Sequence record: MG589383
Length of the DNA: 64,000 bases
Strand: one strand, 5' to 3'
Source: Shigella phage phi25-307
Shown: one piece after another, positions 662 to 49,232 of the stretch
Position numbering within the stretch: position 1 is the stretch's first letter
Layout: every line of letters starts with the position of its first letter
Position numbers and translations under genes: made by a program
The notes under the pieces: generated by a model
Told to the model about the DNA's origin: nothing
The model's database searches: none
Seen by the model: the letters and a program-made list of their open reading frames with translations, nothing else

Positions 662-2749
662 CTATCCTTGGACAAATTTAAACGGAACTGATTCTAAATC
701 CATTAAAGATGCTAACAATTTCAATCCTTTAGGAGCACTAGTTTTTTCTACAAATGAGGAGAACGATATCGGCTCATCTGATTCGATTTCACCCGTCATA
801 GCAACCACCTCACCTGTTTCCATGAGAACATCACCGTCGTAAATGACAGCTTCGTCCAACTGGTCCGAGGACATGACTTCAGCTTGAATAAATTTAAGGT
901 TGGATTCTAAACCTGCACCAGTGTCAGATGACGCATCTGTAATTTTATTTATCTGCAAGAGAATGCCTCTAGGCAAAATAATTTCTTGCTCATTAGGGTG
1001 ATTACTCAACTGTCCAGGATAAATCACGTTAACTTTATGGGCGCCATCAATAGCCCATCCAACGTTAACACGGATTTGGTCTGGTGCATGCATAGCTGTT
1101 CTTACTTGACTAGGAGAAATAGTAACACCTTCGTCATTATTGTCAATGTTAAGCTCTTTGCGAACTTCTTCAGGAGCAAGTCCAAGGGCAACGTTCTCTT
1201 TAAACCCACCGAAAATAATAGGAGCTAGTGAAGTGGAAACATAGTTTCTGAAGTAGAATACCTTATTTTTAACCATTGCTTCGTAAATAGGCATTCTGAT
1301 AGACTGAGCTCTATATAACGTTAGTCCTTCAGGTAAACGGTCTCCATTTAAAAACGCTGAATCAAGACCATCAATAGCGCGTTTAACTTCATCTTCATCT
1401 GCAACATCGTAAAAATCTGGTTTATAACGACCTAACAGCATATTATTGATATCGGTATACGCAGAAGAGGCATATTCACGAATAGCTCGTTTTTCAGCAA
1501 CAGAGTATTGATTAGGGACCCGATTCATTGTTATATTAAAGGTGCCTCTAGCCGATTCTCGTGCATAAGTATACATCACATTAGACAAGAACGCTGATTT
1601 ACGTTGTTTCCAAGTTTTTTCAGATACTTCAGCTAAAACGTCGTCAGCCAGTTGGAAATTATCACGTCTAAAATCTTCAAACCATTCGTCTTTAATAGAG
1701 TCTGCAATTTCATTTGCAGCTTCAACAAAAGCAGTTAATGCTTTAACAGATGTTGTTTTTTCAGTTTTAATTTTCTTAGCAAACTTTTCTAAAGTTGGCT
1801 TAATAACACTACCATAAGAAACTTCATCAGCAAATCTAAAGGATTCATCAATACGATTATAAATCTTATTTTCGATATCAGCAACTAAAGTGCCTTTTGC
1901 TGTGGACGATGCTTGGGCTAGTACGATTTCATATGCTTCAGGAAGTAATTCGGCTGTAGCTGGGCCACTAACTTCTTTAGCAGAATTTTCGTATTTCTGG
2001 AATAACTCACCTTCTTGTCGGTCAGCTTCTAAAGATTGACTTGCTGCAATAGCACGACGAGAAATTTTAGTACGAGCAATAACAGGCTTATCTTTACGTT
2101 TTTCTTCTACAGCAGCAATAGAACCAGCGATAGCCGTTTCTTTGGTGACCTTTTCGCCAGTCTTTTTACTCACATAAACTTCGCCAACATCAGAATCTAC
2201 TTTCGTGTACAACTCTGTGTTAATGTTAGGGATGCCTTTAATATCTTCAATGTTGGCATTTTTGCGAACCATCATCACATAGGTGTGTTTACCTGTGAAT
2301 TGATACATTGCCGACAATACTTTAAAACGACCACCGGTTTTAGTAGAAACTAAACGAGCAAGAAGAGTTTGAAGCTGCTGTCCGCGTCCTTTCAATTTCT
2401 TGGTAGGGAATCGGAATAGAACTGCATCCATACGAAGAGCTTTAACCTGTTCATATACTGTATTGAAAATGGTGTTGATTGCATCAATAGGAGCAGGACC
2501 AAGGCCATTTTTCAATTCAGCGAGATTGCCCTTTTCAGATAGACTCATAATAACAACATGAGCGTATTTGTCGCCAAGTTTAACTTGTTTTACAGCATCA
2601 CCTTCGGAAAGGTAAGAGAATAAGCGAACTACGATGTTTGTATCGATATCACCAATTTTCCAGACTTGTGGAACTTTAGCTTTAGGGTTCAAATTGACGA
2701 CAGGAAGACTGCCTTCAGATTCAAACACTTCATTTAATTGTTCAGACAT
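662..2749 (-). CDS. alt: Alt-like ADP-ribosyltransferase (head-packaged), 695 aa
   Basis: C-terminal ART motifs in order: R (LYRAQSIR), STS (YVSTSLAP), E-x-E (NEQEIILPRG); size close to T4 Alt (about 682 aa); position between gene 54 and ligase as in T4. Confidence 0.8.
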   Translation of the reverse strand: MSEQLNEVFESEGSLPVVNLNPKAKVPQVWKIGDIDTNIVVRLFSYLSEGDAVKQVKLGDKYAHVVIMSLSEKGNLAELKNGLGPAPIDAINTIFNTVYEQVKALRMDAVLFRFPTKKLKGRGQQLQTLLARLVSTKTGGRFKVLSAMYQFTGKHTYVMMVRKNANIEDIKGIPNINTELYTKVDSDVGEVYVSKKTGEKVTKETAIAGSIAAVEEKRKDKPVIARTKISRRAIAASQSLEADRQEGELFQKYENSAKEVSGPATAELLPEAYEIVLAQASSTAKGTLVADIENKIYNRIDESFRFADEVSYGSVIKPTLEKFAKKIKTEKTTSVKALTAFVEAANEIADSIKDEWFEDFRRDNFQLADDVLAEVSEKTWKQRKSAFLSNVMYTYARESARGTFNITMNRVPNQYSVAEKRAIREYASSAYTDINNMLLGRYKPDFYDVADEDEVKRAIDGLDSAFLNGDRLPEGLTLYRAQSIRMPIYEAMVKNKVFYFRNYVSTSLAPIIFGGFKENVALGLAPEEVRKELNIDNNDEGVTISPSQVRTAMHAPDQIRVNVGWAIDGAHKVNVIYPGQLSNHPNEQEIILPRGILLQINKITDASSDTGAGLESNLKFIQAEVMSSDQLDEAVIYDGDVLMETGEVVAMTGEIESDEPISFSSFVEKTSAPKGLKLLASLMDLESVPFKFVQG

Positions 2750-2784
2750 AGTGTTTTCCTTTTAGTAATAATTTATATTTATGC

Positions 2785-2805
2785 CAAAAAGAGCCCGAAG
2801 GCTCT
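2785..2805 (-). terminator. Intrinsic terminator (UUCG-loop hairpin plus U-run)
   Basis: AGAGCC-CGAA-GGCTCT hairpin at 2790-2805, followed on the minus strand by TTTTT; abuts the stop of ORF 2805..2993. Confidence 0.6.
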
Positions 2806-2993
2806 TAATCCACAATCGGGAGCAAAGTACGATAAACTTCAAAATTAGGGCCTTTTTCGTACCCATTAACGTTATCTACGAAAACCCGATACGAATTTTC
2901 ATTAGGAAAATCTAATATAATCTGAGAGCAAGAGGTGGAAACATCTCCACCATCCTTCTTAGCTACAATAACTGTTTCTAAATAAGCTTTCAT
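2805..2993 (-). CDS. Hypothetical protein, 62 aa
   Basis: Start trimmed to the ATG overlapping the ligase stop (TAATG at 2991-2995); ends at the terminator hairpin. Confidence 0.45.
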   Translation of the reverse strand: MKAYLETVIVAKKDGGDVSTSCSQIILDFPNENSYRVFVDNVNGYEKGPNFEVYRTLLPIVD

Positions 2994-4486
2994 TATAAAC
3001 CTGTCTGGGACCACGGTCCAAATACGTCTTCAAACGAATCCGCTTCTGTTTTATCAAAACGGAACCCTTTAATAATTGGAAGGAAAATACCTACAGTACC
3101 TTCACGGCCTTTAGAATGAACCCAACCATTACATTCACAATCAGCGATACGTCCAATTAATTTACCTTCACGAGCTTCGGTCATTAATCGTTCACGGTCT
3201 AAATCATGACGCTCGTCTAAAGGAATAAGAACCTTTACACCGTCAACTGTTTTATGAGTTGTATCTTTAAACCCTGAACCACAATCGGTTGTAATACGAC
3301 GACAACGTGATACGAGTTCGACACCACCTAATTTGTTAGGGTCTTTAGAGTGTTCATAGTATCCTACAACTTCTAAAGCGATATCAATAACTTCTTTAAA
3401 TTTAATTAGGTTCTTAGAGCGTTTGTTTTCCCAATATGAATCACGGTTTTTAAGGATAATACCTTCAAGACCTTGGTCAACATATTTTTTATAAACTACT
3501 TTAGCTTCGTCAAGATTACGAACTAACTGATTTTCAATTGGTTCAATTCGCTTAAAGCCTTCAGCCATATTTTCAAGAGCAGCAAAACGAACATCGTATT
3601 TCTGACCTTTAATTTTGCCGTCAGAATAGACTTCATCTAAAGGAACATAGTCCCAGGCTTGAAGAACCATACCTTCCGCTTCTTTAGGAGAAATAGTCCC
3701 TTGAAGAGATTTATTTGCTAAACCATTTGAAGTGCTACGGTCTGCAACTTGTACTTCTTCGGATTCTTCATTATCACCAAATAAGAACGACAGGTCATTT
3801 CCTGAGCTCACAGCCTTTTTAATATCGAATGAATGATAAACTAATTCACCGTCGATTAAAACCCCATTAGGGTGTCTTTCACGAGCTTCTTTAGTCATTT
3901 CCATTAGTTCATCCGCTAATAGAGTAAGACCATGGTATTCGTTACCAGCACGAGAAAAGAATTGAACACCATCATCGCGAACTTCAGCGAAACAACGAGC
4001 ACCATCTGCTTTTAATTGGGCAAATGCGGGCCATTTAATATTTTTAGTAATCAATTTCTCATCATATGCAGATGCTAACATCTGTGGTTGCAATTGAATA
4101 AGTCCAGGCCACACCTTATTCGCGATAGACACTGAAGCACCTACTTCAAGGTCGCGCATCATTACACGACGAAGGACTTCTACATCATCAGGTTTACCAT
4201 CAGCGATATAACCCATGAGCTCTTTAATTGCAGCATTACCGGTGAGTTTACGAGTGGCTAATGTGAACTCAATAAAATCCAACATGTCATCTAATTCAAG
4301 AAGACCATATGCTTGAGACCTTTCACCCGGTCCTGGCCATTTCTTAATATAATACTGGATACCACGTGCATATGTTAAACGATACACACGTTCAAGTAAT
4401 TTGTTGTCCTTATTTTTCTTAAGGATTTCTTGTTTTGTTTTAGTAGAACCGATCGCAGCTATTTGGTTTAAAATATCTAAAATCAT
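2993..4486 (-). CDS. 30: ATP-dependent DNA ligase, 497 aa
   Basis: Adenylation motif KADGAR; N-terminal region closely resembles T4 gp30 as remembered; size and position between alt and rIII match T4. Confidence 0.92.
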   Translation of the reverse strand: MILDILNQIAAIGSTKTKQEILKKNKDNKLLERVYRLTYARGIQYYIKKWPGPGERSQAYGLLELDDMLDFIEFTLATRKLTGNAAIKELMGYIADGKPDDVEVLRRVMMRDLEVGASVSIANKVWPGLIQLQPQMLASAYDEKLITKNIKWPAFAQLKADGARCFAEVRDDGVQFFSRAGNEYHGLTLLADELMEMTKEARERHPNGVLIDGELVYHSFDIKKAVSSGNDLSFLFGDNEESEEVQVADRSTSNGLANKSLQGTISPKEAEGMVLQAWDYVPLDEVYSDGKIKGQKYDVRFAALENMAEGFKRIEPIENQLVRNLDEAKVVYKKYVDQGLEGIILKNRDSYWENKRSKNLIKFKEVIDIALEVVGYYEHSKDPNKLGGVELVSRCRRITTDCGSGFKDTTHKTVDGVKVLIPLDERHDLDRERLMTEAREGKLIGRIADCECNGWVHSKGREGTVGIFLPIIKGFRFDKTEADSFEDVFGPWSQTGL

Positions 4487-4761: not shown

Positions 4762-5586
4762 TTAACAATTTGTAGACCAAGTCCATTTGGACGAATCTAA
4801 AGGAAAGTTTTGAATCGTCCACCATGGCTGCATATCGGTTGGTCCTGGGGTTCGCCAGGTATATGGAGTACGTGTTGTCGAGGGGCCACCAATTTGATTA
4901 GGCCATGCACCTGGACTTGTTGTACCAGATTCTTTAAGCAAATCCGCCAATCGTTTTAAAAGGTCTTCACGATCTGAATCTGAATTATGCTCGGGTGGAA
5001 CCAAACGAGATTCAATATCATCCCACGTGTGTACACGTTGTGCAGTACGAGGAATGGCATCACGTTCACCACGAGCCAACCAATAAATCGGTACATTAAG
5101 AATTTCTGCTGCATGGTCACAATGATGAGCTAAATCGTCAACGTAACAAATCACGTTATATTTTGTTTTAGCTAGTTCGAATAATTGTTCCTTTGAAGAA
5201 TCATGACCACACATCATTACTTCAGAGAAAGCGCCTGGGAACAAAGCATTCAAATTAAATTGTCTATTCAATCGAGCATCAATTGAATCACCTAGCGCCG
5301 TCACGGCTACAAAATTATAGTCTTCTTTTAGTTTATTGATAACTCGAAGAGCATCCGAATAAGGCGCTAAGTAACGAATAAAATCAGAGCTATTATATTT
5401 TTCTATTAATTGTTTACCAAGGTTATCGTCGGTATTGAACAGTTTACCAGGAGAAATAAATTTTTCGTCCTGAATCATTTTTAAAATATGTTCTAATGGA
5501 AGATTATATTTTTGGGCAAAATAAGGAAGTCCAGATTGCCAGCTTAAACATACACCATCAATATCAGTCAAAATAGTAGGTTTCAT
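4762..5586 (-). CDS. HAD-superfamily phosphatase-like protein with a low-complexity P/T/W-rich C-terminal tail, 274 aa (30.2 position)
   Basis: HAD motif I DIDGV near the N-terminus, later VTALG and YVDDL motifs; last ~70 aa are Pro/Thr/Trp-rich; ATGA overlap with the upstream NADAR gene. Confidence 0.5.
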   Translation of the reverse strand: MKPTILTDIDGVCLSWQSGLPYFAQKYNLPLEHILKMIQDEKFISPGKLFNTDDNLGKQLIEKYNSSDFIRYLAPYSDALRVINKLKEDYNFVAVTALGDSIDARLNRQFNLNALFPGAFSEVMMCGHDSSKEQLFELAKTKYNVICYVDDLAHHCDHAAEILNVPIYWLARGERDAIPRTAQRVHTWDDIESRLVPPEHNSDSDREDLLKRLADLLKESGTTSPGAWPNQIGGPSTTRTPYTWRTPGPTDMQPWWTIQNFPLDSSKWTWSTNC

Positions 5587-6050
5587 AAAGAGTCTCTTAA
5601 TAGGTTTAACACATCAATAAATTCAGCTTCGGTTAGTATTGTATCATCTTTTGTTAGACCGCTAGCCATGCTGTGCTTCAAAATTTTTCCTTTAGAGGCT
5701 TGTAAGGCATCACGAAACCCCTTGTTTTGGATCGCGGCTTCAAAATATGCATTTGTGTATAATTCTTTCCACGCTTCGGAGTATCTTGAAAATGGAACTC
5801 CTAACCAGAAGAGAGTTCCACGGTCCTGAGCTCTTGCATAAGACCTTCCAGCTTGCTGTGCAGCCAATCCAGACATCCCAAATATGCGTCTTTGTTGTTC
5901 AACATTTTTCACCTTACATCCTTGGAGAAATCCTTCAAGTCCTCCGAATTGAATACCATCCATAACGAAAGGCCATTGAGCAAAGTTACTTAATGCACAT
6001 GACGGCCATTTGAAATTGCTTCTTATTTCTAATTCAGACATCTTTAACAC
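5583..6050 (-). CDS. NADAR / YbiA-like domain protein, 155 aa (30.3 position)
   Basis: Motif LSNFAQWPFVMDGIQF...EGFLQGCK matches the FSNFAAWP...DG...E.YFQA.KF core of E. coli YbiA as remembered. Confidence 0.6.
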   Translation of the reverse strand: MLKMSELEIRSNFKWPSCALSNFAQWPFVMDGIQFGGLEGFLQGCKVKNVEQQRRIFGMSGLAAQQAGRSYARAQDRGTLFWLGVPFSRYSEAWKELYTNAYFEAAIQNKGFRDALQASKGKILKHSMASGLTKDDTILTEAEFIDVLNLLRDSL

Positions 6051-6252
6051 TTATAATTTCAACATCAGCCCAATGGCCATATCCAGGTATACGGTCTTCG
6101 ATAGATAAATTTCCGTCATTTTTAGGCATTTTAATTGACGTAACGTATGGTTCTAAACGGTTTTCTGCATAATACGGAAAAACGTCTGTTACACGATAAG
6201 TAACTTCGATCATTTCCGTACCAAACAATTTCTGGATTAATTTATTCAACAT
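6034..6252 (-). CDS. Hypothetical protein, up to 72 aa (start uncertain)
   Basis: ORF overlaps neighbours at both ends; the true start may be the internal Met (MIEVTYR). Confidence 0.4.
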   Translation of the reverse strand: MLNKLIQKLFGTEMIEVTYRVTDVFPYYAENRLEPYVTSIKMPKNDGNLSIEDRIPGYGHWADVEIISVKDV

Positions 6253-9593: not shown

Positions 9594-10175
9594 TTATTCA
9601 CCACAAAAGTTTCGGATTTGTTCCCAATTCAGAGAACGAAGATTATTACGAGAGTACTGAATTACTTCAATACCGGCTTGTTTTAGAATGTCTGCCCAAT
9701 TTTCAGGAGATCTGTCATATAATTCTGCGTATACAACCTTTTTAATACCTGACTGCGTAATAGCTTTAGTGCAATCAGGACATGGAGAAAGTGTCGTATA
9801 CAACGTAGCACCTTCAATAGAATTACCTTTACGAGCTGCAAACAAAATGGCATTCAATTCAGCATGGATTTCGTTATTAGCAGACCATGCACTATGAGCG
9901 GCCCGATGTTCTTTAGCCAAAACAAAATTATCCACCCGTCCAAATGCTGTAGTGCCTTCTTTATGTCCGGCAACGATGACCGGGCTTGGTTTATTCTTCA
10001 ACCAACCGTTTTCGGATGCATGTTCACAACAGTTAACGCCACCTGCTGGTGAGCCATTATATCCAGTAGAGATAATGCGTCCATCTTTTTCAATGACGGC
10101 ACCAACTTTCCATGAACAACATTTTGATTCTTGAGAAATCAGATATGCAATCTGAAGGTATGTGCTAGCTTTCAT
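9594..10175 (-). CDS. cd: dCMP deaminase, 193 aa
   Basis: Zinc-binding deaminase motifs HAELNAI and PCPDCTKAI; same length as T4 Cd. Confidence 0.9.
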   Translation of the reverse strand: MKASTYLQIAYLISQESKCCSWKVGAVIEKDGRIISTGYNGSPAGGVNCCEHASENGWLKNKPSPVIVAGHKEGTTAFGRVDNFVLAKEHRAAHSAWSANNEIHAELNAILFAARKGNSIEGATLYTTLSPCPDCTKAITQSGIKKVVYAELYDRSPENWADILKQAGIEVIQYSRNNLRSLNWEQIRNFCGE

Positions 10176-11167
10176 TATTGAACCTTATTAATATAAGTTA
10201 ACAGCTCTTTAGTTTGTTCCCAACCGATGCACGCATCGGTAACGGAAACGCCATAGGACATATTATCAGAAATTTTTTGATTTCCTTCATGTAGGAATGA
10301 TTCTATCATAATTCCTTTGACCAAATCATTAGCTGCTAAATTTTTACCAATACCAATTTGATTGCTATAATACCCATCAGCGTTTGCGTGGCTACAGTCA
10401 ACCATTACATAATGATTCAGACCTAATGCACTTGCTTTGTTAGAAGCTTCTTGAATATCAGAAGAATGATAGTTCGGGCCGTTAGTCCCGCCACGCAATA
10501 CGATATGCGTATTCTGATTACCTTCAGCTTCAACAATGCCTACAGTACCATCGACGTCCATACCCATATACCGATGAGGCCAGGCGGCACTATACATCGC
10601 GTCTGTAGCTACTTTAATAGAACCATTGGTTGCGTTCTTGAAGCCTACGCACATCGGTAGACCTGAAGCAATTTCACGATGTGTCTGACTTTCAGTCGTA
10701 CGGGCGCCAATAGCAACCCATGAGAAAATACCAGAAAGATACTTAATCGTGAATGGGTCTAATACTTCAGTTGCTAATGGAAGTCCCATACGTAGAAGTT
10801 TACGACACAATGTTCGTGCAACTATAAGACCGTGGTTCATATCAAAACTTCCGTCAAGATATGGATCATTTACAAGACCTTTCCAACCTACGGTAGTTCG
10901 AGGCTTTTCAAAATAAACGCGCATCACTAACAGAACATTAGGAAGACGAGTTTGAAGTTCAGCCAGACGTTTGCCGTATTCAACAGCAGCAATAGGGTCA
11001 TGAATTGAACAAGGACCTACAACAATAAGTTTGCGTGGGTCTTCACCGTTCATAATCGAATTAACTTGTTCGCGATGAGAAGCCACTTGTGATGCGTAAG
11101 CTTCCGACAAAGGAATAATCTCAGCCAGTTCTTTTGGAGAAATAAGTTTTCTGACGATAGGTAACAT
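10175..11167 (-). CDS. 3-deoxy-D-arabino-heptulosonate-7-phosphate (DAHP) synthase, class I alpha (AroG/AroF/AroH-like), 330 aa
   Basis: Long runs shared with remembered E. coli AroG: VVGPCSIHDP, MRVYFEKPRTTVGWKGL, IGARTTESQ.HRE.ASGL, VGFKN, ILRGG, SHAN, VTDACIGWE. Stop overlaps the cd start as TAATG; own SD TAAGGA. Confidence 0.9.
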   Translation of the reverse strand: MLPIVRKLISPKELAEIIPLSEAYASQVASHREQVNSIMNGEDPRKLIVVGPCSIHDPIAAVEYGKRLAELQTRLPNVLLVMRVYFEKPRTTVGWKGLVNDPYLDGSFDMNHGLIVARTLCRKLLRMGLPLATEVLDPFTIKYLSGIFSWVAIGARTTESQTHREIASGLPMCVGFKNATNGSIKVATDAMYSAAWPHRYMGMDVDGTVGIVEAEGNQNTHIVLRGGTNGPNYHSSDIQEASNKASALGLNHYVMVDCSHANADGYYSNQIGIGKNLAANDLVKGIMIESFLHEGNQKISDNMSYGVSVTDACIGWEQTKELLTYINKVQ

Positions 11168-11287
11168 AACAATCCTTAGGAGATATAAACAGATTCTGAT
11201 TCAACAATACCTTTAACCGGATTAGACAGGCTAAGTTGGTAGTGCTCAGATTTATGACCATTCTCGATAGTAATGAGATAGCTCTCA

Positions 11288-11524
11288 TTATAGTGTTCCA
11301 TATACTCGAGTTGCTTCAACAAGACCATCACTGCCTAATTTAAGATTAGTAATTTGGTCACCATCTTTAGGATTAACGATTATGAGAAAAGAACGTGGAG
11401 ATTCTTTAATAACTCGTAATGTTGCATCTTGGAAACGTTCAGACACTTTATTGATGAGTGCTTGAGCAAATTCTTTTACTTTAATCTGAAATTCGTGTAC
11501 TGTAATTGGGTTTTCACTTAGCAT
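11288..11524 (-). CDS. Hypothetical protein, 78 aa
   Basis: ORF downstream of the promoter at 11553-11582. Confidence 0.55.
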   Translation of the reverse strand: MLSENPITVHEFQIKVKEFAQALINKVSERFQDATLRVIKESPRSFLIIVNPKDGDQITNLKLGSDGLVEATRVYGTL

Positions 11525-11552
11525 TTCTATTTCCTCATTTGTTGGTAGAGTT

Positions 11553-11582
11553 ATAGTATCACAACTCCACCATGTTGTAAAC
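11553..11582 (-). promoter_or_regulatory. Early promoter (GTTTAC, 18 nt, TACTAT) in an imperfect inverted repeat
   Basis: Minus strand GTTTACAACATGGTGGAGTTGTGATACTATAACTCTACC. Confidence 0.5.
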
Positions 11583-11584
11583 CA

Positions 11585-11860
11585 TTAAATTGCTTTGCAT
11601 TCAATTTTTTGTGTACCGAAATTGATATCACATTGGATAACTAAATCGCCGTCAAGATCAAATACCACTATGACGTGTGCAGACCCAGGGAGAAGAGTAA
11701 TAGCAATAGAATCTACTTGGTCTGGGAGCAAAGCATTGAGTACATGAGTTAGTTGAGCATGAACTCTGAGTTCGGCTGCATTATCAAGCACTTCAAACAT
11801 ATTATTAGCAATAATCTGACTGAAGACTACCTTTACAATTTCAGAATAAGTTGGGAACAT
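11585..11860 (-). CDS. Hypothetical protein, 91 aa
   Basis: ORF in the cd-pseT interval. Confidence 0.55.
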   Translation of the reverse strand: MFPTYSEIVKVVFSQIIANNMFEVLDNAAELRVHAQLTHVLNALLPDQVDSIAITLLPGSAHVIVVFDLDGDLVIQCDINFGTQKIECKAI

Positions 11861-11867
11861 AATTACC

Positions 11868-12092
11868 TCAGTGTACAGTATTTACTTTAACTCGAACAAC
11901 AAATCGCTCGGTCGGTTCACCTACAGGAACAAACTCTACATGATATTCACCTTTGTAACGAGTATTCAGATCATTACGAATTCCTGCGAGTTTGTTGATT
12001 AATGTAGGACTCATATTAAGTCCCACTAGTTTACGAAGCATTTTGTATGCTTCATCTTCGATTTCATGATGTTTATCGTACATAGTTTTCAT
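11868..12092 (-). CDS. Hypothetical protein, 74 aa
   Basis: ORF in the cd-pseT interval. Confidence 0.5.
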   Translation of the reverse strand: MKTMYDKHHEIEDEAYKMLRKLVGLNMSPTLINKLAGIRNDLNTRYKGEYHVEFVPVGEPTERFVVRVKVNTVH

Positions 12093-12263
12093 TTAACCAT
12101 TCAATTGCCTGGTCGACGTTATCAAATATACCGCCGTCCAACCATTCTTCATGTTCATAGTCCAGCACATCAATACCGAACCGTCCATTTACTAAAGGCC
12201 ATACTACAAACAAATATTCTTTATGCTGTTCGATGGCCTCAATCACTTCATATAATCGTTTCA

Positions 12264-12264: not shown

Positions 12265-13350
<1,086 letters not shown>

Positions 13351-17960: not shown

Positions 17961-20216
17961 TTAAAGCTTACAAGCAGAACAATCTTCAGCTTTAGGTGTT
18001 TCTAATTCGTAGTCATCTGTACCTGACCCATCACGAGTGTTATGATAGTAGAGGTTTTTTCCGCCAAAGTACCAGAAGTAAAGTAGATCGTCAAGCATTA
18101 CTGACATTGGTACTTTACCTTTCTCAAATACTGCAGGGTCATAGTAAGTATTAGCAGAAGCAGATTGGCACACCCATTTCAACATGATAGCAACTTGGGT
18201 CAAATAAGGTTTATTACCTTTCTTAGCAAGTTTCCACGCGTAGTCGTAAAGACTCATGTTATGTTCTATATTAGGAACAACCTGACGGAAGTTGCCTTCT
18301 TTAGATTCTTTAATACTTACTGGACCGCGTGGGGGCTCAATCCCGTTTGTAGAGTTTGATACTTGACTGCTTGACTCACAAGGCATGAGTGCAGACAACG
18401 TTGAGTTACGAATTCCATGTTCTTTGAGTTCAGCTCGAAGTTCTTCCCAGTCACAGACGTAGTTCGGGGCTGCGATTTGGTCAATCTTTTTATTGTACCA
18501 GTCGATAGGTAATTCGCCTCTAGACCATTTAGTGTCTGAATAATACTCGCAACATCCTTTTTCTTTGGCGAGTTTGATTGAAGCTTTGATAAGGCCATAT
18601 TGCAATCTCTCAAACAATTCATGAGTCAAATCGTTAGCGTCTTCATATGAAGCAAAGTTGGAAGCTAACCATGCGGCATAGTTCGTAACACCAACACCGA
18701 GGTTTCGACGCTTTTTAGCTTTTAAAGCTTCTGGAACCGGATAATCTTGATAGTCTAACAGGTTATCAAGTGCACGTACTTGTACTTCAGCAAGTTCATT
18801 AATTTTATCTTGGTCTTGCCAATCAAATTTATCTAATACAAAAGCAGATAATGTGCATAAACCAATTTCAGCATCAGGACCATTCACATCATTAGTTGGA
18901 ATAGCGATTTCACAACATAAGTTACTCTGACGAATTGGAGCTTTTTCACGAATAAATGGAGTGTAGTTATTCGTGTTATCAACAAACTGTGGATAAATTC
19001 GAGCAGTGCCAGAACGTTCAGTCATGAACAATTCAAAGAGTTCTAGTGCTTTTATTCTTTTCTTTCTGATTGTTGGGTCTTTTTCAGCTTTCTCATAAAG
19101 CTCACGGAATTTATCTTGATCTTCAAAGAACGAGTAGTATAGTTCGCCTGACATTTCGTGAGGGCTAAATAAAGTAATATAATCATTTTTACCAAGGCGT
19201 TCCATCATAAGGTCATTAATCTGAATTCCGTAGTCCATATGACGAATACGGTTTTCATCCACGCCTTTGTTATTTTTCAGAACTAATAGGTTCTCTACTT
19301 CTAAGTGCCACATCGGATAATACGCTGTAGCAGCACCACCACGAATACCACCTTGAGAACAAGATTTTACTGCAGTTTGGAAATGTTTCCAGAATGGAAT
19401 AACACCTGTATGTCGAACTTCACCCATACCGATCTTAGAACCTTCTGCACGAAGCATACCAACGTTGATACCGATACCAGCTCGTTTAGAAATATATTCA
19501 ATAATTGATGCTGAAGTTTTGTTAATAGATTTTAACGAATCACCGGCTTCAATAACTACACAACTAGAGAACTGGCGAGTTGGAGTACGAGCACCTGCCA
19601 TAATTGGAGTAGGCAATGAAACTTGATGAGTAGAAACGGCATCATAAAAACGAATAATATGTTTCAAACGGTCGTGAGTTTCGTCTTGATGTAAGGCCAT
19701 ACCAATAGCCATGATAGCAAACTGTGGAGTTTCATAAATCTTCCCAGTTGTTTTATCTTTAACTAGATATTTTTCTTTAAGCTGCATAGCACCAGCATAA
19801 GTCAGGTCAAAGTCTCGTTCATGTTTAATCTGTGAATCGAGATAAATGATTTCTTCTGCTGAATATTGAGACAACAACTCAGGGTCATATTTGCCTTCAT
19901 TAACACAGTAAGAAATATGGTCGATAAAAGCAGGTGGTTCAAACTGTCCGTATACATCTTTACGAAGTGCAAACATTAGCCCTTTGGCGGCGACATACTG
20001 ATAATCAGGTTCTTCGACAGAAATCAAGTTAGCTGCAACTTTAATACAAATCTTCTGAATATCTTTGGTGCTCATCCCATCGACAAGATGGGTCTTAATT
20101 TCTTCGTACAATTCATATGGATCAATTTGTGTTCCTTCACATTGCCAAGTTAAGACTTGAATAATTTTCTGTGCATCAAAATTTTGGGATACACCACTGC
20201 TCTTAGTTACTTGCAT
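17961..20216 (-). CDS. nrdA: Ribonucleotide reductase large (alpha) subunit, 751 aa
   Basis: Class Ia RNR alpha features (ATP-cone-like N-terminus, CEIAIPT and conserved Cys-containing segments); size close to T4 NrdA (about 754 aa). Confidence 0.9.
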   Translation of the reverse strand: MQVTKSSGVSQNFDAQKIIQVLTWQCEGTQIDPYELYEEIKTHLVDGMSTKDIQKICIKVAANLISVEEPDYQYVAAKGLMFALRKDVYGQFEPPAFIDHISYCVNEGKYDPELLSQYSAEEIIYLDSQIKHERDFDLTYAGAMQLKEKYLVKDKTTGKIYETPQFAIMAIGMALHQDETHDRLKHIIRFYDAVSTHQVSLPTPIMAGARTPTRQFSSCVVIEAGDSLKSINKTSASIIEYISKRAGIGINVGMLRAEGSKIGMGEVRHTGVIPFWKHFQTAVKSCSQGGIRGGAATAYYPMWHLEVENLLVLKNNKGVDENRIRHMDYGIQINDLMMERLGKNDYITLFSPHEMSGELYYSFFEDQDKFRELYEKAEKDPTIRKKRIKALELFELFMTERSGTARIYPQFVDNTNNYTPFIREKAPIRQSNLCCEIAIPTNDVNGPDAEIGLCTLSAFVLDKFDWQDQDKINELAEVQVRALDNLLDYQDYPVPEALKAKKRRNLGVGVTNYAAWLASNFASYEDANDLTHELFERLQYGLIKASIKLAKEKGCCEYYSDTKWSRGELPIDWYNKKIDQIAAPNYVCDWEELRAELKEHGIRNSTLSALMPCESSSQVSNSTNGIEPPRGPVSIKESKEGNFRQVVPNIEHNMSLYDYAWKLAKKGNKPYLTQVAIMLKWVCQSASANTYYDPAVFEKGKVPMSVMLDDLLYFWYFGGKNLYYHNTRDGSGTDDYELETPKAEDCSACKL

Positions 20217-24078: not shown

Positions 24079-24732
24079 TTAATACTTACATGATTTGATT
24101 GTTTCTATGAACAATTTCTTAGCAGCATTTCCATCGATTTGAAGTATTTTTCGATATGCCTTTAATTTGGTAGAATAATTTTGCCAGACTAAATTGTCAG
24201 TAAGTTCGTCGTGCTTATCTATAATATTCAAAAATGAGTCCAACAATAAGAAAGTCTCAAATGAGATTATATTGCTTTGTAGCAATTTGAATATGTAGCT
24301 CGACTGAACGTTGTTATTATAATCAAATATCTCTTGAAGCGCACTAACTTCAACTTTCTTACTGAAATAGTAGATGTTACGTACGTCTTCAGCAAACGTC
24401 TCCTTGGCTTGTTTGAGACGTCCAATATATTCCCTATAGAAAACTAATGCATCAGCGTCTGATATCTCACCAATCCATGCGTCTTGGTTAGCAACTAAGT
24501 TGCTTATGAATATCAAGGTGAGTTCCTTCAATTTATATTTCTCTGCTAGTTTTTCAAAGAAATATTTATCTCGGCGTTTTTGATACGCATTATCCGAAAC
24601 ACGCATGCACCAGTTATATTTGATTACGTCATACCGACCACCAAAGTGGTTTTTGCACATCAAGTATAGTTTATATACTGATTTACCGTTAATATAACGT
24701 TCTCCGTCAGGAGGCATGCGTATTTTAATCAT
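24079..24732 (-). CDS. 59: Helicase loader gp59, 217 aa
   Basis: Same length as T4 gp59 and a close match to its remembered sequence (GERYI.GKSVYKLYLM...DVIKYNWCMRVSD.AYQKRRDKYFF). Confidence 0.9.
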   Translation of the reverse strand: MIKIRMPPDGERYINGKSVYKLYLMCKNHFGGRYDVIKYNWCMRVSDNAYQKRRDKYFFEKLAEKYKLKELTLIFISNLVANQDAWIGEISDADALVFYREYIGRLKQAKETFAEDVRNIYYFSKKVEVSALQEIFDYNNNVQSSYIFKLLQSNIISFETFLLLDSFLNIIDKHDELTDNLVWQNYSTKLKAYRKILQIDGNAAKKLFIETIKSCKY

Positions 24733-25408
24733 AGTTCCATCCAGGCCATTTTGAAGATTTAAGTCTATACGTAACTAGAGATGCAGAAATATTAAAAACA
24801 TCCGAAACTTCTGTGCATGACGAGTATTTTATACCATCAATAATTATAGGTTTTTGTTTTTTAATAGTTCTTTCTTTAGAATGCGGCTTTGAATTTGCTA
24901 TTCTAAGAGCTTCTTTGGTTGAATCAGGCATCGGCTTATTCGTTTTTCGCCCTTTTCGGACTTTACTCAAAGCTAATTTATGAGCTTCAGATAGTTTCTT
25001 ACCCTTATTAGGGGATGGTATTTTTCTTTCTAATCTGGTTTTAGATACTTTAGCCTTAGTCTCTTCAGATCTAGGTTTACCTAATTTAGAAAGTGAAATA
25101 GCCCTTTTAGCTTCATCACTTTGTTTTTTACCAGGGCCACCTTTACCACCGGGAACTAAGTTATAAGTATCAGTTCGCAAAACAAAATCTTCATTAACCA
25201 ATTCTGCTTCTTTTTTATAGGCGTCCTTGTCATTATCATATTCATAAAGAATTTCGGTATAAAAATTTTTTAGTCCATATTTAGCTTTGGCCGCTAATAT
25301 AGCGCGGCCTGATCCAATATACCAATCTTTCTCTTTATGTTTTTTGTGTACGCCTATATAAATTTTACCATTTATTTTATTGGTAGTTTTATACACAACG
25401 TATTTCAT
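24725..25408 (-). CDS. GIY-YIG homing endonuclease (Seg-like), 227 aa
   Basis: N-terminal GIY-YIG module VVYKTTNKINGKIYIGV..., basic C-terminal half with repeated K/R-rich DNA-binding-like segments; free-standing between gene 59 and gene 33. Confidence 0.8.
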   Translation of the reverse strand: MKYVVYKTTNKINGKIYIGVHKKHKEKDWYIGSGRAILAAKAKYGLKNFYTEILYEYDNDKDAYKKEAELVNEDFVLRTDTYNLVPGGKGGPGKKQSDEAKRAISLSKLGKPRSEETKAKVSKTRLERKIPSPNKGKKLSEAHKLALSKVRKGRKTNKPMPDSTKEALRIANSKPHSKERTIKKQKPIIIDGIKYSSCTEVSDVFNISASLVTYRLKSSKWPGWNYD

Positions 25409-32766: not shown

Positions 32767-35700
32767 ATGGCTACATTAAAACAGATACAATTTAAAAGAA
32801 GCAAAGTAGCAGGAGTTAATCCTACTGCAGCACAATTAGCCGAAGGCGAATTAGCGATAAACTTAAAAGATCGAACTCTTTTTACTAAAGATGACCTCGG
32901 TAATATTATTAGCCTAGGCTTTGCTAAGGGCGGGGATATTAACGGTAATGTAACTCAAAATGGAGATTATTTACAGAACGGTACATATAATCTCAATGGA
33001 AACCAGTTTGTTTATGCAGGAAAATATATTGAATTTTTACCTAAAACTGCAGGCAATGGTGCTTGGGCTAACCAACATTTGAATAAAGCCCCTATCTTTA
33101 CAGATTTAAGTTCAACTACTTCTGTTTCAGAATACCATCCGCTGATTAAACAACGCTATAAAGATGGAACTTTTTCTGCTGGTACATTAGTAAACGAAGG
33201 TAGTTTTAAATTCCATTATATTGATGAAACCAGGACTTCAAAATACTGGACTTTTAATCGAAACGGTAATTTTCAAGTTGATTCCGGAAGTTTATTAGTA
33301 TCTAATGGATATTTAGTTACTCAAAGTAATATTGAAACTAAAGCTGGTTCTTTAATTGGTCCTAAAGTTATTACCAAAAATATCAATGTGAGCACTAAAT
33401 CTTGGGACACTAATATTGATACTGCATATGATTTAGTTTCATTACCTACTTGGCAGTATACTCCAACCGAAACGGATTTGGATACTAATGGTATAAACTA
33501 CCTTCGTAAATTCCGCGGACATGTTTCTTCTGCTATTTTCCATGAAGTTGCTGATGCTCGTTCAGGTAAACCACAGAATATTTCGTATTGGACGGGACGT
33601 AATGCTGAAGTTTATCAATGGTCTTATACCACAGATGGGCGTATGTCTGTTGCTAATTCGATAGGTATAGGTCTTGCTGATGTTGGTGACCAAGGACGTT
33701 ATCCATTGGTTTCGTTTGGTAAAGGTATTGCAATTGGTGACAATGATACTGGTATTAAATGGGTTCGTGACGGGGTTATCGATTTAGTTGCGAATGGTAT
33801 TTCTGCCGGCACTATTCTTAATAACGGTATTAACAGTACTAAAAAATTGATGGTCGGTTATAGCCGCGATTCTGGTACTACTTGGGATTTCCCAAATAAC
33901 AACCAAGCAATGTTTACCGCACGCACCGATGTTGATGGTAATAATAACGGCGATGGTCAGACTCATATCGGTTATAACAGTAATTCTAAAATGTATCACT
34001 ATTTCCGTGGTACAGGTCGTATGGCTGTTGGTATGTCCCAAGGTCTCCTTGTTGAACCAGGAATTTTAGATATTAGCACTGGTTCAAATACATTAAGTTT
34101 GCGTGCTGACGGTACTGTTGCTTCTGTTCAAACGTTAAAGCTTAATAATGGATTATATTTTAATGGTGATGGAACTAATGCTTCTTTAGTTTTTAAAGCA
34201 GCTTCAGGTATTGATGGCACTAAGCAAATTATGTGGGAAGGTGGTAAGCGTGCTGGTCAAAATAAAAGTTATGTGACAGCTAAAGCTTGGGGTAATTCAT
34301 TTAACGCATCTGGCGATCGTAATCGTGAAACAGTTTTTGAAGTAGCTGACGGACAAGGTTATTACTTTTATGCGCAGCGTGTAGCTCCCGCTTCAGGATC
34401 TACTGTCGGACCAATTCAATTTAGAATTGCTGGAGCATTATTAACCGGTGGTGGTATTACATCATCCGGCTCGATTGTTACAGAATCAAGTTTAGTTGCT
34501 AATAACGGATTATCTGTAAATGGCCAGGCTAAATTTGGCGGAACAGCTGATGCATTAAGAATTTGGGATGCCGAATATGGCGCTATTTTCCGTCGTTCAG
34601 AAACAGCATTACATATTATCCCGACCAATAAAGATGCTGGTGAATCTGGTGGAATAAGCAATCTGCGCCCATTGAGCATCGCACTTAACAACGGTATGGT
34701 TCAAATGCGTCATTCTGTCACGTTAGGTGATGATGGTGCAGGCGGTAATATGATTACTGTGGACAACGATAACAAACTTGTTGTTGTTACTAGTCATAGT
34801 CGTATTTCTCCTAATTACCGTATGCAGGTAGGACAAGCAGCTTATATTGATGCTGAATGTACTGACACCGTTCGCCCGGCTGGTGCAGGGTCTTTTGCTT
34901 CACAAAATAATGAAAACGTTCGTGCTCCGTTCTATATGAATATTAATCGCACAGATACAAGTACTTACGTTCCTATTTTAAAACAACGTTATGTTCAAGG
35001 AAATAGCTGTTATTCTTTAGGTACTTTAATAAATGGCGGTAACTTCAGAGTTCATTATCATGAAGGTGGAGACGGAAGTTCAACAGGCGCAACTATAAAA
35101 GATTTAGGCTGGGAATTTACACGTTCTGGTGATTTTATATCTCCTAAGCGCATTTCTGCTGGGGGTTCAGTTTATTTAGGCACAGACGGTAACATTACTG
35201 GTGGTTCTGGTAATTTTGCCAACTTAAATAGTACAATTGAATCACTTAAAACTGATATTGTTTCAAGTTATCCTATTGGAGCTCCGATTCCTTGGCCTAC
35301 TGATACACCTCCTGAAGGTTACGCCATAATGGAAGGTCAAACATTTGATGCTGGCTTGTATCCTAAGTTAGCTGCTGTGTATCCTTCCGGCTCTCTGCCT
35401 GATATGCGTGGTCAAACTATCAAGGGTAAACCATCTGGGCGTGCTGTATTAAGTACAGAAGCAGACGGTGTTAAGTCACATAGCCATAGTGCAAGTGCAT
35501 CAAACACGGATTTGGGTACTAAAACCACTTCTAGTTTTGATTACGGTAGCAAAACGACTTCAAGCTTTGATTATGGTACTAAGACCAGTAATACCACTGG
35601 CAACCATAACCATACAGTGAGTGGTAATACTAGTTCCGCTGGTGCTCACCGACACGCGCGTTCAGGCCCTCAGATTCAATACGGCGTACACACTAGCATA

Positions 35701-48404: not shown

Positions 48405-48436
48405 TTAAAATTAAAATGAAGCTCCCGAAGGAGCTT
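48405..48436 (-). terminator. Intrinsic terminator overlapping the HNH endonuclease stop codon
   Basis: AAGCUCC-UUCG-GGAGCUU hairpin (48419-48436) followed by CAUUUUAAUUUU on the minus strand. Confidence 0.6.
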
Positions 48437-49232
48437 AGGACATCCAACACATTTTATAACCTTTGCAGGTTCTGTTAGGATTATTTAATGCTTTCAATAT
48501 ATTAGAAGACCCTATATCTAAATACTCCCTTAATTCATAAAGATAGTTAAAATCAATAGTTTCACCTGTTTTTACACTTGTGATTCTTATAGGCCTTCTT
48601 TCATATTTAGATTTATACAACTCTCTAGTCTTAGCTTTAGTTTCTTCTGACCTAGGAGTGTATGGTTTAAATCCTTTTGTTTTAAATGTTTCCATTCTTG
48701 ATTTAGTTATTTTATCCTGGTGTTCTTTTGTTTTTACAGGTGCTTTTCGCCCATTCTCCCAAGATAACTTGTTGGCCTGTATTATTTTATCTATTGCTTC
48801 TTGCGTATGAGTTTTACCATAAAATGGATTTAATTCGCCTATACGTTGTGAAGCAATATGTGACATTAATTCTCTTGTTGCTTTAGTATGTTTTTTACCT
48901 TTAAATGGGTTGCCATTTTTAGCAATCCATTCTTTCATAAATCTAGAGTGCTCTTTAGAGAATTCTTGTTTAAGCCAATCATAATCTCTAGAATTTCTAG
49001 CTCCCATGTAAAAAGCTCTAATAGCCATAAGCATAGAACGGTTCTTATGAATTTTATAAAGCAATAAATGGGCGATAAAATGCTCTCTAGGGGTCATTTT
49101 AACTAGATTTGATTTAGCATTACTCCCACCCATAGATTTAGGCAAAATATGGTGAGTTTCAGTATAATTAGGAATAGTGCTGCGGTTTTTAGCCGCAGCG
49201 ATAAGTTTATCATAAATTTTACGATAATTCAT
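48435..49232 (-). CDS. HNH homing endonuclease (Mob-like), 265 aa
   Basis: HNH motif TETHHILPKSMGGSN...NLVKMTPREHFIAH and repeated NPF(K/Y)GK.HT NUMOD-like motifs; start overlaps the gene 39 stop (TAATG). Confidence 0.8.
   Translation of the reverse strand: MNYRKIYDKLIAAAKNRSTIPNYTETHHILPKSMGGSNAKSNLVKMTPREHFIAHLLLYKIHKNRSMLMAIRAFYMGARNSRDYDWLKQEFSKEHSRFMKEWIAKNGNPFKGKKHTKATRELMSHIASQRIGELNPFYGKTHTQEAIDKIIQANKLSWENGRKAPVKTKEHQDKITKSRMETFKTKGFKPYTPRSEETKAKTRELYKSKYERRPIRITSVKTGETIDFNYLYELREYLDIGSSNILKALNNPNRTCKGYKMCWMS

Follow-up and report, generated by a model that had tools for sequence, protein, structure and literature searches.

A putative DAHP synthase with a remodelled feedback site in Shigella phage phi25-307 and related T4-like phages

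This report concerns one gene in a stretch of 64,000 nucleotides from Shigella phage phi25-307 (sequence record MG589383); the whole stretch is referred to below as the window. The gene lies at window positions 10175-11167 on the minus strand and encodes a protein of 330 amino acids. [quoted passage not shown] The analysis described here suggests, with a probability that we put at about 0.7, that the gene encodes an early-expressed and catalytically normal class I-alpha DAHP synthase, which would join phosphoenolpyruvate (PEP) and erythrose 4-phosphate (E4P) to give DAHP. The feedback site of this enzyme appears to have been remodelled, and the enzyme would serve as a valve that admits carbon to the shikimate pathway independently of the host. 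We infer its activity, its insensitivity to feedback, the time of its expression and the chorismate-derived product that matters from the evidence laid out below.

The mere presence of such a gene is ordinary, as it is a catalogued auxiliary metabolic gene. More than 130 phage records already name it, many of those listed as "phospho-2-dehydro-3-deoxyheptonate aldolase" or "DAHP synthase", and the PHROGs database places its family, phrog_5045, in the auxiliary-metabolic category. The DAHP synthetase of Kanagawavirus KLB31, which belongs to the same clade and to which the window protein is 77% identical, has been named as an auxiliary metabolic gene with a suggested general role in aromatic amino acid supply (PMC11845039). 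These sources give a name and that general suggestion, without the regulatory site, the lineage restriction or the U32-family protein discussed here. The identity of the gene is already known; the regulatory-site signature and the U32 lead are new.

Family assignment and active site

The reading frame starts with an ATG at 11167 and ends with a stop codon at 10175-10177. A longer in-frame start is not possible because the frame was listed from the first start past the upstream stop. The protein matches Pfam PF00793 (DAHP_synth_1; E=1.8e-74, 250.5 bits, cut-off 25.5), the aroFGH equivalog model TIGR00034 of NCBIfam (426.4 bits, cut-off 173.2) and NCBIfam NF009395 (454.2 bits, cut-off 343). In PHROGs, residues 1-330 align with positions 8-337 of the 341 in the phrog_5045 profile (E=2e-181, 603 bits). 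The models for single isozymes are not reached: the score is 363.9 bits with the AroG equivalog NF006723 (cut-off 568) and 383.8 bits with the AroH subfamily model NF009396 (cut-off 463). The KdsA (KDO8P synthase) family is absent among the NCBIfam matches, and the corresponding loop reads KPRTT and is not of the KANRS type.

The structural comparisons agree with this assignment. The closest solved structure is that of E. coli AroF (6AGM, E=3.6e-104). A model of the protein made with AlphaFold2 has a predicted local distance difference test score (pLDDT) of 87 and a predicted template modelling score (pTM) of 0.89, with strands at residues 198-203 and 209-214; compared by Foldseek with the NmeDAH7PS and E. 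coli AroG structures it gives template modelling scores of 0.91-0.93. The predicted fold is a (beta/alpha)8 barrel that carries an N-terminal extension as well as the additional beta6a/beta6b hairpin. Compared with E. coli AroF, AroG and AroH (6AGM, 1KFL/1QR7) the phage protein has the fold, the length class and the metal-, PEP- and E4P-binding residues in common at 44-51% identity, whereas its N-terminus is 8-11 residues shorter and AroG positions 150, 151, 180 and 209 are replaced.

All the residues expected in the active site are present. The metal ligands, with AroG numbers in brackets, are Cys53 (C61), His260 (H268), Glu289 (E302) and Asp311 (D326), as read from the alignment. PEP and E4P would be bound by Arg83 (R92), Lys88-Pro89-Arg90-Thr91 (K97-T100), Arg156 (R165), Lys177 (K186) and Arg225 (R234). 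These metal-, PEP- and E4P-binding residues are invariant (12 of 12) across 25 proteins of the phage clade, and on these grounds the enzyme is predicted to be catalytically competent. The assignment to class I-alpha made in the earlier note is therefore borne out by the profile scores, the structure match and the active site. That note had named the absence of a significant family match, or loss of the metal- and PEP-binding residues, as findings that would count against it; the family search returned strong DAHP synthase matches and every such residue is kept. The motifs VVGPCSIHDP, MRVYFEKPRTTVGWKGL, IGARTTESQ, GFKN, SHAN and VTDACIGWE that it had listed were all found. Two details need correction: the motif given as ILRGG reads IVLRGG, and the metal-binding histidine that had been placed in the IGW region is His260 in SHAN, while the IGW region supplies Asp311 (in TDAC).

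The regulatory site

The differences between the phage proteins and their cellular homologues were sought in a scan without prior choice of sites, which took positions that are fixed in at least 24 of the 25 phage sequences and depart there from a residue on which at least 90% of the cellular proteins agree. This yielded just six: by AroG number, 150 P>I, 151 Q>K, 155 D>G, 180 S>P, 209 F>Y and 223 T>A, corresponding to Ile141, Lys142, Gly146, Pro171, Tyr200 and Ala214 of the window protein. All six fall within the AroG segments 144-155, 175-182 and 209-223, outside the active site. The canonical residue prevails in the cellular homologues, with P150 in 90 of 98, Q151 in 96, S180 in 95 and F209 in 95. 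The N-terminus is altered as well. The phage proteins have 48-52 residues ahead of the catalytic cysteine and the 98 cellular proteins have at least 58, so that the phage N-terminus is shorter by 6-15 residues or more. It has no equivalents of AroG residues 1-9, which include AroG Asp6 and Asp7 and the counterpart of AroF Asn8.

Pockets of the Phe, Tyr or Trp type are made up of Pro150, Gln151, Ser180 and Phe209 together with residues 6-10 of the partner subunit, and this set is not found in the phage enzyme. The earlier note had proposed that inspection of the allosteric site would predict sensitivity to one of the three amino acids; on inspection the site is neither Phe-, Tyr- nor Trp-type and has been remodelled. 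The phage enzyme is probably deregulated and insensitive to feedback because the changes fixed in the clade all lie in what we take to be regulatory elements and because the N-terminus is shortened. Within the phage clade 11 of 17 regulatory-site positions are invariant against a background of 34% (p=0.008). The Ile-Lys-Pro-Tyr combination was not found outside the phage clade among the variants with a short N-terminus and an altered site seen in the HMMER search described below.

Laboratory variants offer a comparison. AroG P150L and S180F and AroF Q152I and N8K are feedback-resistant (PMC11843938, PMC7044121). In the alignment AroF Q152 corresponds to AroG Q151, AroF N8 to AroG D7 and AroF P148 to AroG M147. 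Taken with AroG D146N, which also belongs to the engineered resistant enzymes, these variants coincide with the phage protein at three altered positions (150, 151 and 180), where the phage residues are Ile, Lys and Pro and the laboratory residues are Leu, Ile and Phe. Asp146 and the equivalent of AroF Pro148 are retained by the phage, and the AroF P148 mutation is not mimicked since the phage keeps proline there. The phage protein appears to have come by feedback resistance naturally and to have been tested in this by evolution; metabolic engineers obtain the same property in DAHP synthases by mutation, and other residues are used here.

Distribution and origin

The region of the window that carries the gene is 98-98.7% identical to that of Mosigviruses of the JS09/ST0/HX01/HY126 type. 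A tblastn search with the protein gave matches in 211 phage records; in 138 of these the identity is at least 95%. The closest 25 sequences in a search of 5.8 billion proteins are 57-99% identical, have 319-343 amino acids and are phage-borne wherever the context is readable. Past this clade the nearest cellular proteins are only 50-55% identical and come from many phyla. The phylogeny against cellular homologues that the earlier note had called for gave, instead of a host branch, a phage-only clade that is monophyletic in 100 of 100 neighbour-joining bootstraps. Its neighbour-joining sister is a Pseudomonas-type isozyme (45 of 60 bootstraps), a placement that could be due to long-branch attraction. 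The representative of this isozyme (P0086, 83% identical to a protein of Pseudomonas sp. NA-150) also has a non-canonical site, with Pro180 in common with the phage proteins; it differs from them in its full-length N-terminus, its residues A150, G151 and H209, its overall identity of about 53% and its chromosomal context of uvrC and pgsA.

A further HMMER profile search covered 1.84 billion representatives at 50% clustering, and no separate representative for the phage clade was found among them. Its two top matches are tandem-duplicated DAHP synthase proteins of 730-799 amino acids. Both (P0121, 799 residues, and P0122, 730 residues) are metagenomic and consist of two full class I-alpha domains, one after the other; both copies in P0122 have a degenerate KPRT loop and a degenerate metal-binding cysteine. 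Nine faecal DAHP synthase records labelled "Bacteriophage sp." were not counted as phage. One of these contigs was examined and is bacterial: MT837466.1, from human faeces, is a chromosomal fragment with a BCCT transporter, a choline-binding surface protein, AraD and a capsule tyrosine kinase. The contigs named Acinetobacter phage MD-2021a are probably likewise not a source of phage DAHP synthase.

The description of the gene as host-type is not supported if it is meant to say that the gene was captured from a host. Compared with E. coli AroG, AroF and AroH, the protein has 48, 51 and 44% identity. The G+C content (GC) of the gene is 40.9% and that of third codon positions (GC3) is 29%, the same as in the neighbouring phage genes cd and pseT, compared with a GC of 52% for aroF and aroG. 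The low identity, scores below the AroG and AroH cut-offs, phage-like composition and monophyly all speak against that meaning, and unlike AroF, AroG and AroH the enzyme is virus-encoded at phage GC. Recent capture from the host was considered and is ruled out by the 44-51% identity, the phage-like GC and GC3 and the phage-only clade.

The gene stands between pseT and cd in Mosigvirus, Marfavirus, Bragavirus, Winklervirus and Kanagawavirus and in two metagenomic T4-like contigs. Comparisons between genera give a ratio of nonsynonymous to synonymous divergence (dN/dS) of 0.15-0.27; the pair KLB31 and Entb_45 has a ratio of 0.16 at a synonymous divergence (dS) of 0.65. These observations indicate that the gene has long resided in phages and evolves under purifying selection.

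In RB69, the type member of the genus, cd is directly followed by cd.2 and the DAHP synthase gene is missing, as it is from a minority of Mosigviruses; Tegunavirus phiR1-RT and Mosugukvirus PM2 also lack it. Compared with RB69 the window has an extra segment of 1094 bp at 10179-11272, which holds the DAHP synthase gene and a cd.2-like fragment, and the junction repeat TAATGA(A/G)AGCTA is found at both of its ends. The segment looks like a cassette that T4-like phages exchange, or that is lost when the sequence between the repeats is deleted. A block at about 10178-12100, comprising the DAHP synthase gene, cd.2, cd.3 and an ORF227-like gene, differs by 0.5-1.3% among six Mosigviruses, compared with 3.4-4% for cd and pseT. 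Against phage ST0 the dS is 0.004 in the DAHP synthase gene and 0.14 in cd. The low divergence of this block may reflect a recent recombinational sweep.

Gene order, transcription and proposed mechanism

The nearest downstream gene on the minus strand is cd, which encodes a dCMP deaminase of 193 amino acids (9594-10175, identified with Pfam). The TAATG coupling to cd described in the earlier note is confirmed, the TAA of the DAHP synthase gene occupying 10177-10175 and the ATG of cd 10175-10173. The same note had placed the gene among cd, td, frd and nrdAB. It adjoins cd, but nrdB and nrdA are 5.6-9 kb upstream and td and frd about 10.4-11 kb upstream, and pseT, the spanins, alc, rnlA and denA stand in between; the so-called nucleotide-metabolism cluster is the ordinary T4 gene order. 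The statement that T4 has no such gene at this position is correct, as its cd-pseT interval holds only cd.1-cd.5.

Upstream of the gene a Shine-Dalgarno sequence AAGGA (11173-11177, minus strand, from direct reading) lies 5 nt before the ATG and overlaps the TAA stop (11176-11178) of a small open reading frame at 11176-11331 on the minus strand. This frame is a C-terminal fragment of the cd.2 family that matches DUF7320 positions 43-76 and phrog_15876/phrog_1504. It is diverged and has 51 amino acids when read from a GTG; related records give 41 from an ATG. A full-length cd.2 homologue of 78 amino acids (11288-11524, minus strand), recognized as a reading frame with a DUF7320 profile match, comes next.

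A T4-type early promoter (GTTTACA-N17-TGaTACTAT) was found on the minus strand at 11553-11581, in the space that separates cd.3 from cd.2. In both position and sequence it corresponds to T4 Pe133295, lining up base by base with the T4 spacer that carries this promoter, and the record of phage SA79RD annotates the same site as an early promoter. Terminator-like sites were not seen on the minus strand between the promoter and cd. The predicted early transcription unit is cd.2, the fragment, the DAHP synthase gene and cd. Sites resembling sigma-70 promoters number 19, compared with 17.2 in shuffled sequence, an absence of excess. Of the candidate sites, the homologue of the T4 promoter alone was relied on. 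It was also observed that Pe133295 and the ribosome-binding region downstream of it are nearly identical in T4 and in this Mosigvirus, though the next genes differ (cd.1 in T4, the DAHP synthase gene here). A middle-promoter pattern resembling the MotA box (TGCTTNA-N11-13-TANNNT) occurs 12 times in the window against 3.9 expected from shuffles, 9 of the 12 on the minus strand; one such site, at 12547-12571, is inside pseT and upstream of the DAHP synthase unit.

Based on these observations the following mechanism is proposed. The DAHP synthase would be transcribed right after infection from the conserved T4-type early promoter together with cd.2 and cd. With the feedback residues replaced and the N-terminal segment removed, it would remain active while the AroG, AroF and AroH enzymes of the host are inhibited, for example in surroundings rich in amino acids. 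Of the whole pathway the phage would open just the regulated first reaction, and the host enzymes AroB to AroC and those that use chorismate would do the rest. An enlarged pool of chorismate and prephenate in the infected cell is the expected outcome.

Several points weigh against this proposal. The gene is dispensable, since RB69, Tegunavirus and Mosugukvirus do without it. Inside Mosigvirus the dN/dS of about 0.9 comes from 4-12 differences, is uninformative and gives no signal of constraint. Promoter homology is the sole ground for the time of expression. The choice of inhibitor-contacting residues, and the assignment of the three segments that hold the six altered positions to the inhibitor pocket and the beta6a/beta6b hairpin of class I-alpha enzymes, are our own assumption, based on the AroG-Phe structure (PDB 1KFL). 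The strong conservation of the site would fit a ligand site that has been retuned as well as an enzyme that is locked "on". Finally, no biochemical or genetic study and no enzyme assay of any phage DAHP synthase was found in the searchable literature.

Possible roles of the enzyme

What would the phage do with more chorismate? One possible answer, which we hold tentatively, is general biosynthesis. The sink would be Phe, Tyr and Trp for phage protein, or para-aminobenzoate (pABA) and folate to supply thymidylate synthase, DHFR and the folate of the baseplate, or both. The DAHP synthase step controls the carbon that enters the aromatic pathway, the gene is in an early unit with cd and in an early region that also has td, frd and nrdAB, and a general role of this kind was proposed in the sole paper found on a phage DAHP synthase (PMC11845039). 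However, a general benefit should not stay in one lineage, and more than 500 records of Tequatrovirus type match the flanks of the gene and lack the gene itself. This argument is tempered by the fact that inheritance within a lineage could explain the restriction too. T4-like phages also live mostly off the amino acid pools of the host. In the annotation of 308Ecol101PP, a complete related genome that is 96-98% identical, no pABA or folate-synthesis genes accompany the DAHP synthase, and no other shikimate enzymes are annotated.

A second suggestion, speculative as it is, involves prephenate and the modification of phage DNA. The deregulated DAHP synthase would keep prephenate, as the co-substrate that donates the hydroxyl group, available for a U32-family protein, the homologue of RB69 gp50, acting as an O2-independent cytosine C5-hydroxylase. 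This protein would complement the flavin- and O2-dependent 5-hydroxy-dCMP synthase of the phage during anaerobic growth or while the pathway of the host is switched off by aromatic amino acids. Mosigvirus DNA contains arabinosylated 5-hydroxycytosine, which is made aerobically by a flavin/O2-dependent homologue of thymidylate synthase; in the same study gp50 was described as a 5D88-like protein and its role was guessed to be that of a "sugar or heterocycle reductase" (PMC13326640). The U32 enzymes that have been studied well are prephenate-dependent hydroxylases acting on C5 of pyrimidines, and two of them make comparable products in RNA. RlhA forms 5-hydroxycytidine in rRNA and TrhP forms 5-hydroxyuridine in tRNA, both require prephenate, knockouts of aroB, aroD, aroE, aroA or aroC or of pheA and tyrA together abolish the modifications, and TrhO provides an O2-dependent route parallel to TrhP (PMC5727448, PMC6599085).

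The features of gp50 fit this suggestion in part. It matches Pfam Peptidase_U32 (PF01136; E=7e-11, 42 bits, cut-off 22) and phrog_5757. Its gene, at 2493-3662 on the minus strand of the RB69 locus L005 and at 18236-19411 of the 308Ecol101PP locus L106, is placed between a HAD phosphatase and the 5-hydroxy-dCMP synthase within the 5-hydroxycytosine/arabinosylation cluster. In an alignment at 17-19% identity Glu188 and Cys195 coincide with the essential Glu and the first Cys of the U32 motif, but the second essential Cys aligns with a Gly. Other Cys residues are nearby and there is a C-terminal CX5CX4CX2C cluster. A sequence search of the PDB with gp50 gave no match. The likeness to RlhA and to TrhP and TrhO is no more than a functional analogy: in the phage an O2/flavin cytosine 5-hydroxylase occurs together with an adjoining U32 gene and a gene of the pathway to prephenate. 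In contrast to RlhA and TrhP, the phage substrate would be a deoxynucleotide or DNA and not RNA, and the second U32 Cys is not conserved.

The distribution of the two genes is similar. The phage U32 gene was found in 220 records, and its distribution nearly coincides with that of the DAHP synthase gene. Counted by the organism name in the record, the numbers for U32 and DAHP synthase are 137 and 125 for Escherichia, 26 and 25 for Klebsiella, 12 and 10 for Shigella, 7 and 7 for Proteus, 7 and 6 for Serratia, 4 and 4 for Enterobacter and 3 and 3 for Edwardsiella. All the genomes checked that have a phage-clade DAHP synthase have the U32 gene, which is also present in all the close relatives. Phages of Acinetobacter, an aerobe, have neither. 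The phage-clade DAHP synthase appears to be confined to T4-like phages whose DNA contains 5-hydroxycytosine and to be nested inside genomes with U32, with exceptions in one direction only. These exceptions, RB69, Tegunavirus phiR1-RT and Mosugukvirus PM2, have U32 without DAHP synthase and do not favour a firm connection. The co-occurrence may also represent one ancestral gain in one phage lineage, as the counts carry no phylogenetic correction. Other points speak against the connection: the phage encodes no recognizable chorismate mutase, and the U32 gene is about 6 kb past the end of the window at coordinate 64000. By a rough estimate, about 64,000 cytosines per genome and 100-200 genomes per burst would call for about 10^7 hydroxylations per cell, a sizeable share of the prephenate flux of a cell, at a time when the DAHP synthases of the host may be under feedback inhibition.

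An unrelated phage may offer a parallel. Aeromonas phage HJ05 (OQ594355.1, 79 kb) has its own DAHP synthase three genes from a CmoA-like protein. CmoA is the carboxy-S-adenosylmethionine synthase and consumes prephenate. This pair of genes occupies the intervals 1287-2024 and 4899-6062 of locus L010. The HJ05 DAHP synthase is 38% identical to that of the window and has a non-canonical site (A150, H151, P180, V209); it has no close relative in the IMG/VR scan. The CmoA-like protein matches TIGR00740 over its full length (E=7e-35) and phrog_4752, but its score of 121 bits is below the NCBIfam cut-off of 193. At 80 IMG/VR loci no U32 or CmoA-like reading frame lies within 10 kb of the DAHP synthase, a point against the suggestion. 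An Acb2/Tad1-type sponge and a PP-loop ATPase were also noted near the DAHP synthase of HJ05.

If the suggestion is true, this would be the first virus known to re-plumb aromatic biosynthesis for the modification of DNA bases, and the CmoA-like/DAHP synthase pair of HJ05 would be a second case of the same logic. Two orphan genes would be explained, gut phages would be shown to modify their DNA without O2, and a gene of central metabolism would be tied to anti-restriction DNA chemistry.

The remaining alternatives concern the enzyme itself. Has the regulatory site been lost or retuned? In the latter case Ile-Lys, Pro and Tyr would form a pocket for another effector, which might be a phage nucleotide, prephenate or chorismate, and the enzyme would still be allosteric; we regard this as rather unlikely. 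The changed residues are fixed across the 57-99% identity range, the site varies less than the remainder of the protein, as described above, and the change from Gln to Lys turns a neutral charge positive. Natural variants of the site do exist, among them the A150, G151, P180 and H209 of the Pseudomonas-type isozyme. On the other hand the same residues are at the tight-dimer interface, so that their conservation may be structural. The loss of the N-terminal residues, which presumably close the pocket in AroG (PDB 1KFL), argues against a classical ligand site, and the data point to no candidate ligand.

A change of substrate is very unlikely. The enzyme would use PEP with another sugar phosphate, for instance the arabinose 5-phosphate (A5P) of the phage, and give an octulosonate or sugar acid for the decoration of DNA. 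The phage makes A5P, and E. coli DAHP synthase uses A5P weakly. But KPRT and all the substrate-binding residues are canonical, there is no KdsA-type match, and A5P isomerase and DAHP synthase do not go together: Klebsiella phages of Marfavirus type have DAHP synthase in 25 records and the isomerase in at most 3, and Acinetobacter phages have the isomerase in 57 records and no DAHP synthase. The sugar-acid precursor that the earlier note had offered as its more speculative idea thus finds no backing, as no substrate-binding residue departs from the cellular consensus. A coupling of the DAHP synthase to arabinose synthesis was considered separately and is out, since the Marfavirus-type phages of Klebsiella have the DAHP synthase and not the isomerase, and the Acinetobacter phages and RB69 have the isomerase and not the DAHP synthase. 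A link of the DAHP synthase to DNA modification by another route, via prephenate, is possible.

That the gene is a functionless passenger drifting to loss is most improbable and already largely refuted by its conservation, for although it is missing in RB69 and a minority of Mosigviruses and the dN/dS within the genus is about 0.9, that ratio is built on 4-12 substitutions only, every member has kept an intact frame and active site across deep divergence, and the ratios between genera are those of a constrained gene (0.15-0.27).

Other features of the window

Rfam and tRNA scans of the whole window gave no matches, and no compositional anomaly was seen in it. A segment of about 2.2 kb at 32933-35188, in the region of the long-tail-fibre gene gp37, has no megablast match to 308Ecol101PP, which is 96-97% identical elsewhere, and is presumably a swapped host-range determinant. 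Two reading frames on the minus strand are likewise not in 308Ecol101PP. The first, at 48435-49247, encodes 270 amino acids with a NUMOD3 motif and is located between the gene for the topoisomerase large subunit and an RB69 gp3-type glycosyltransferase gene. The second, at 24725-25408, encodes 227 amino acids with a GIY-YIG SegE-like domain and an I-TevI DNA-binding domain. Both look like free-standing homing endonucleases.

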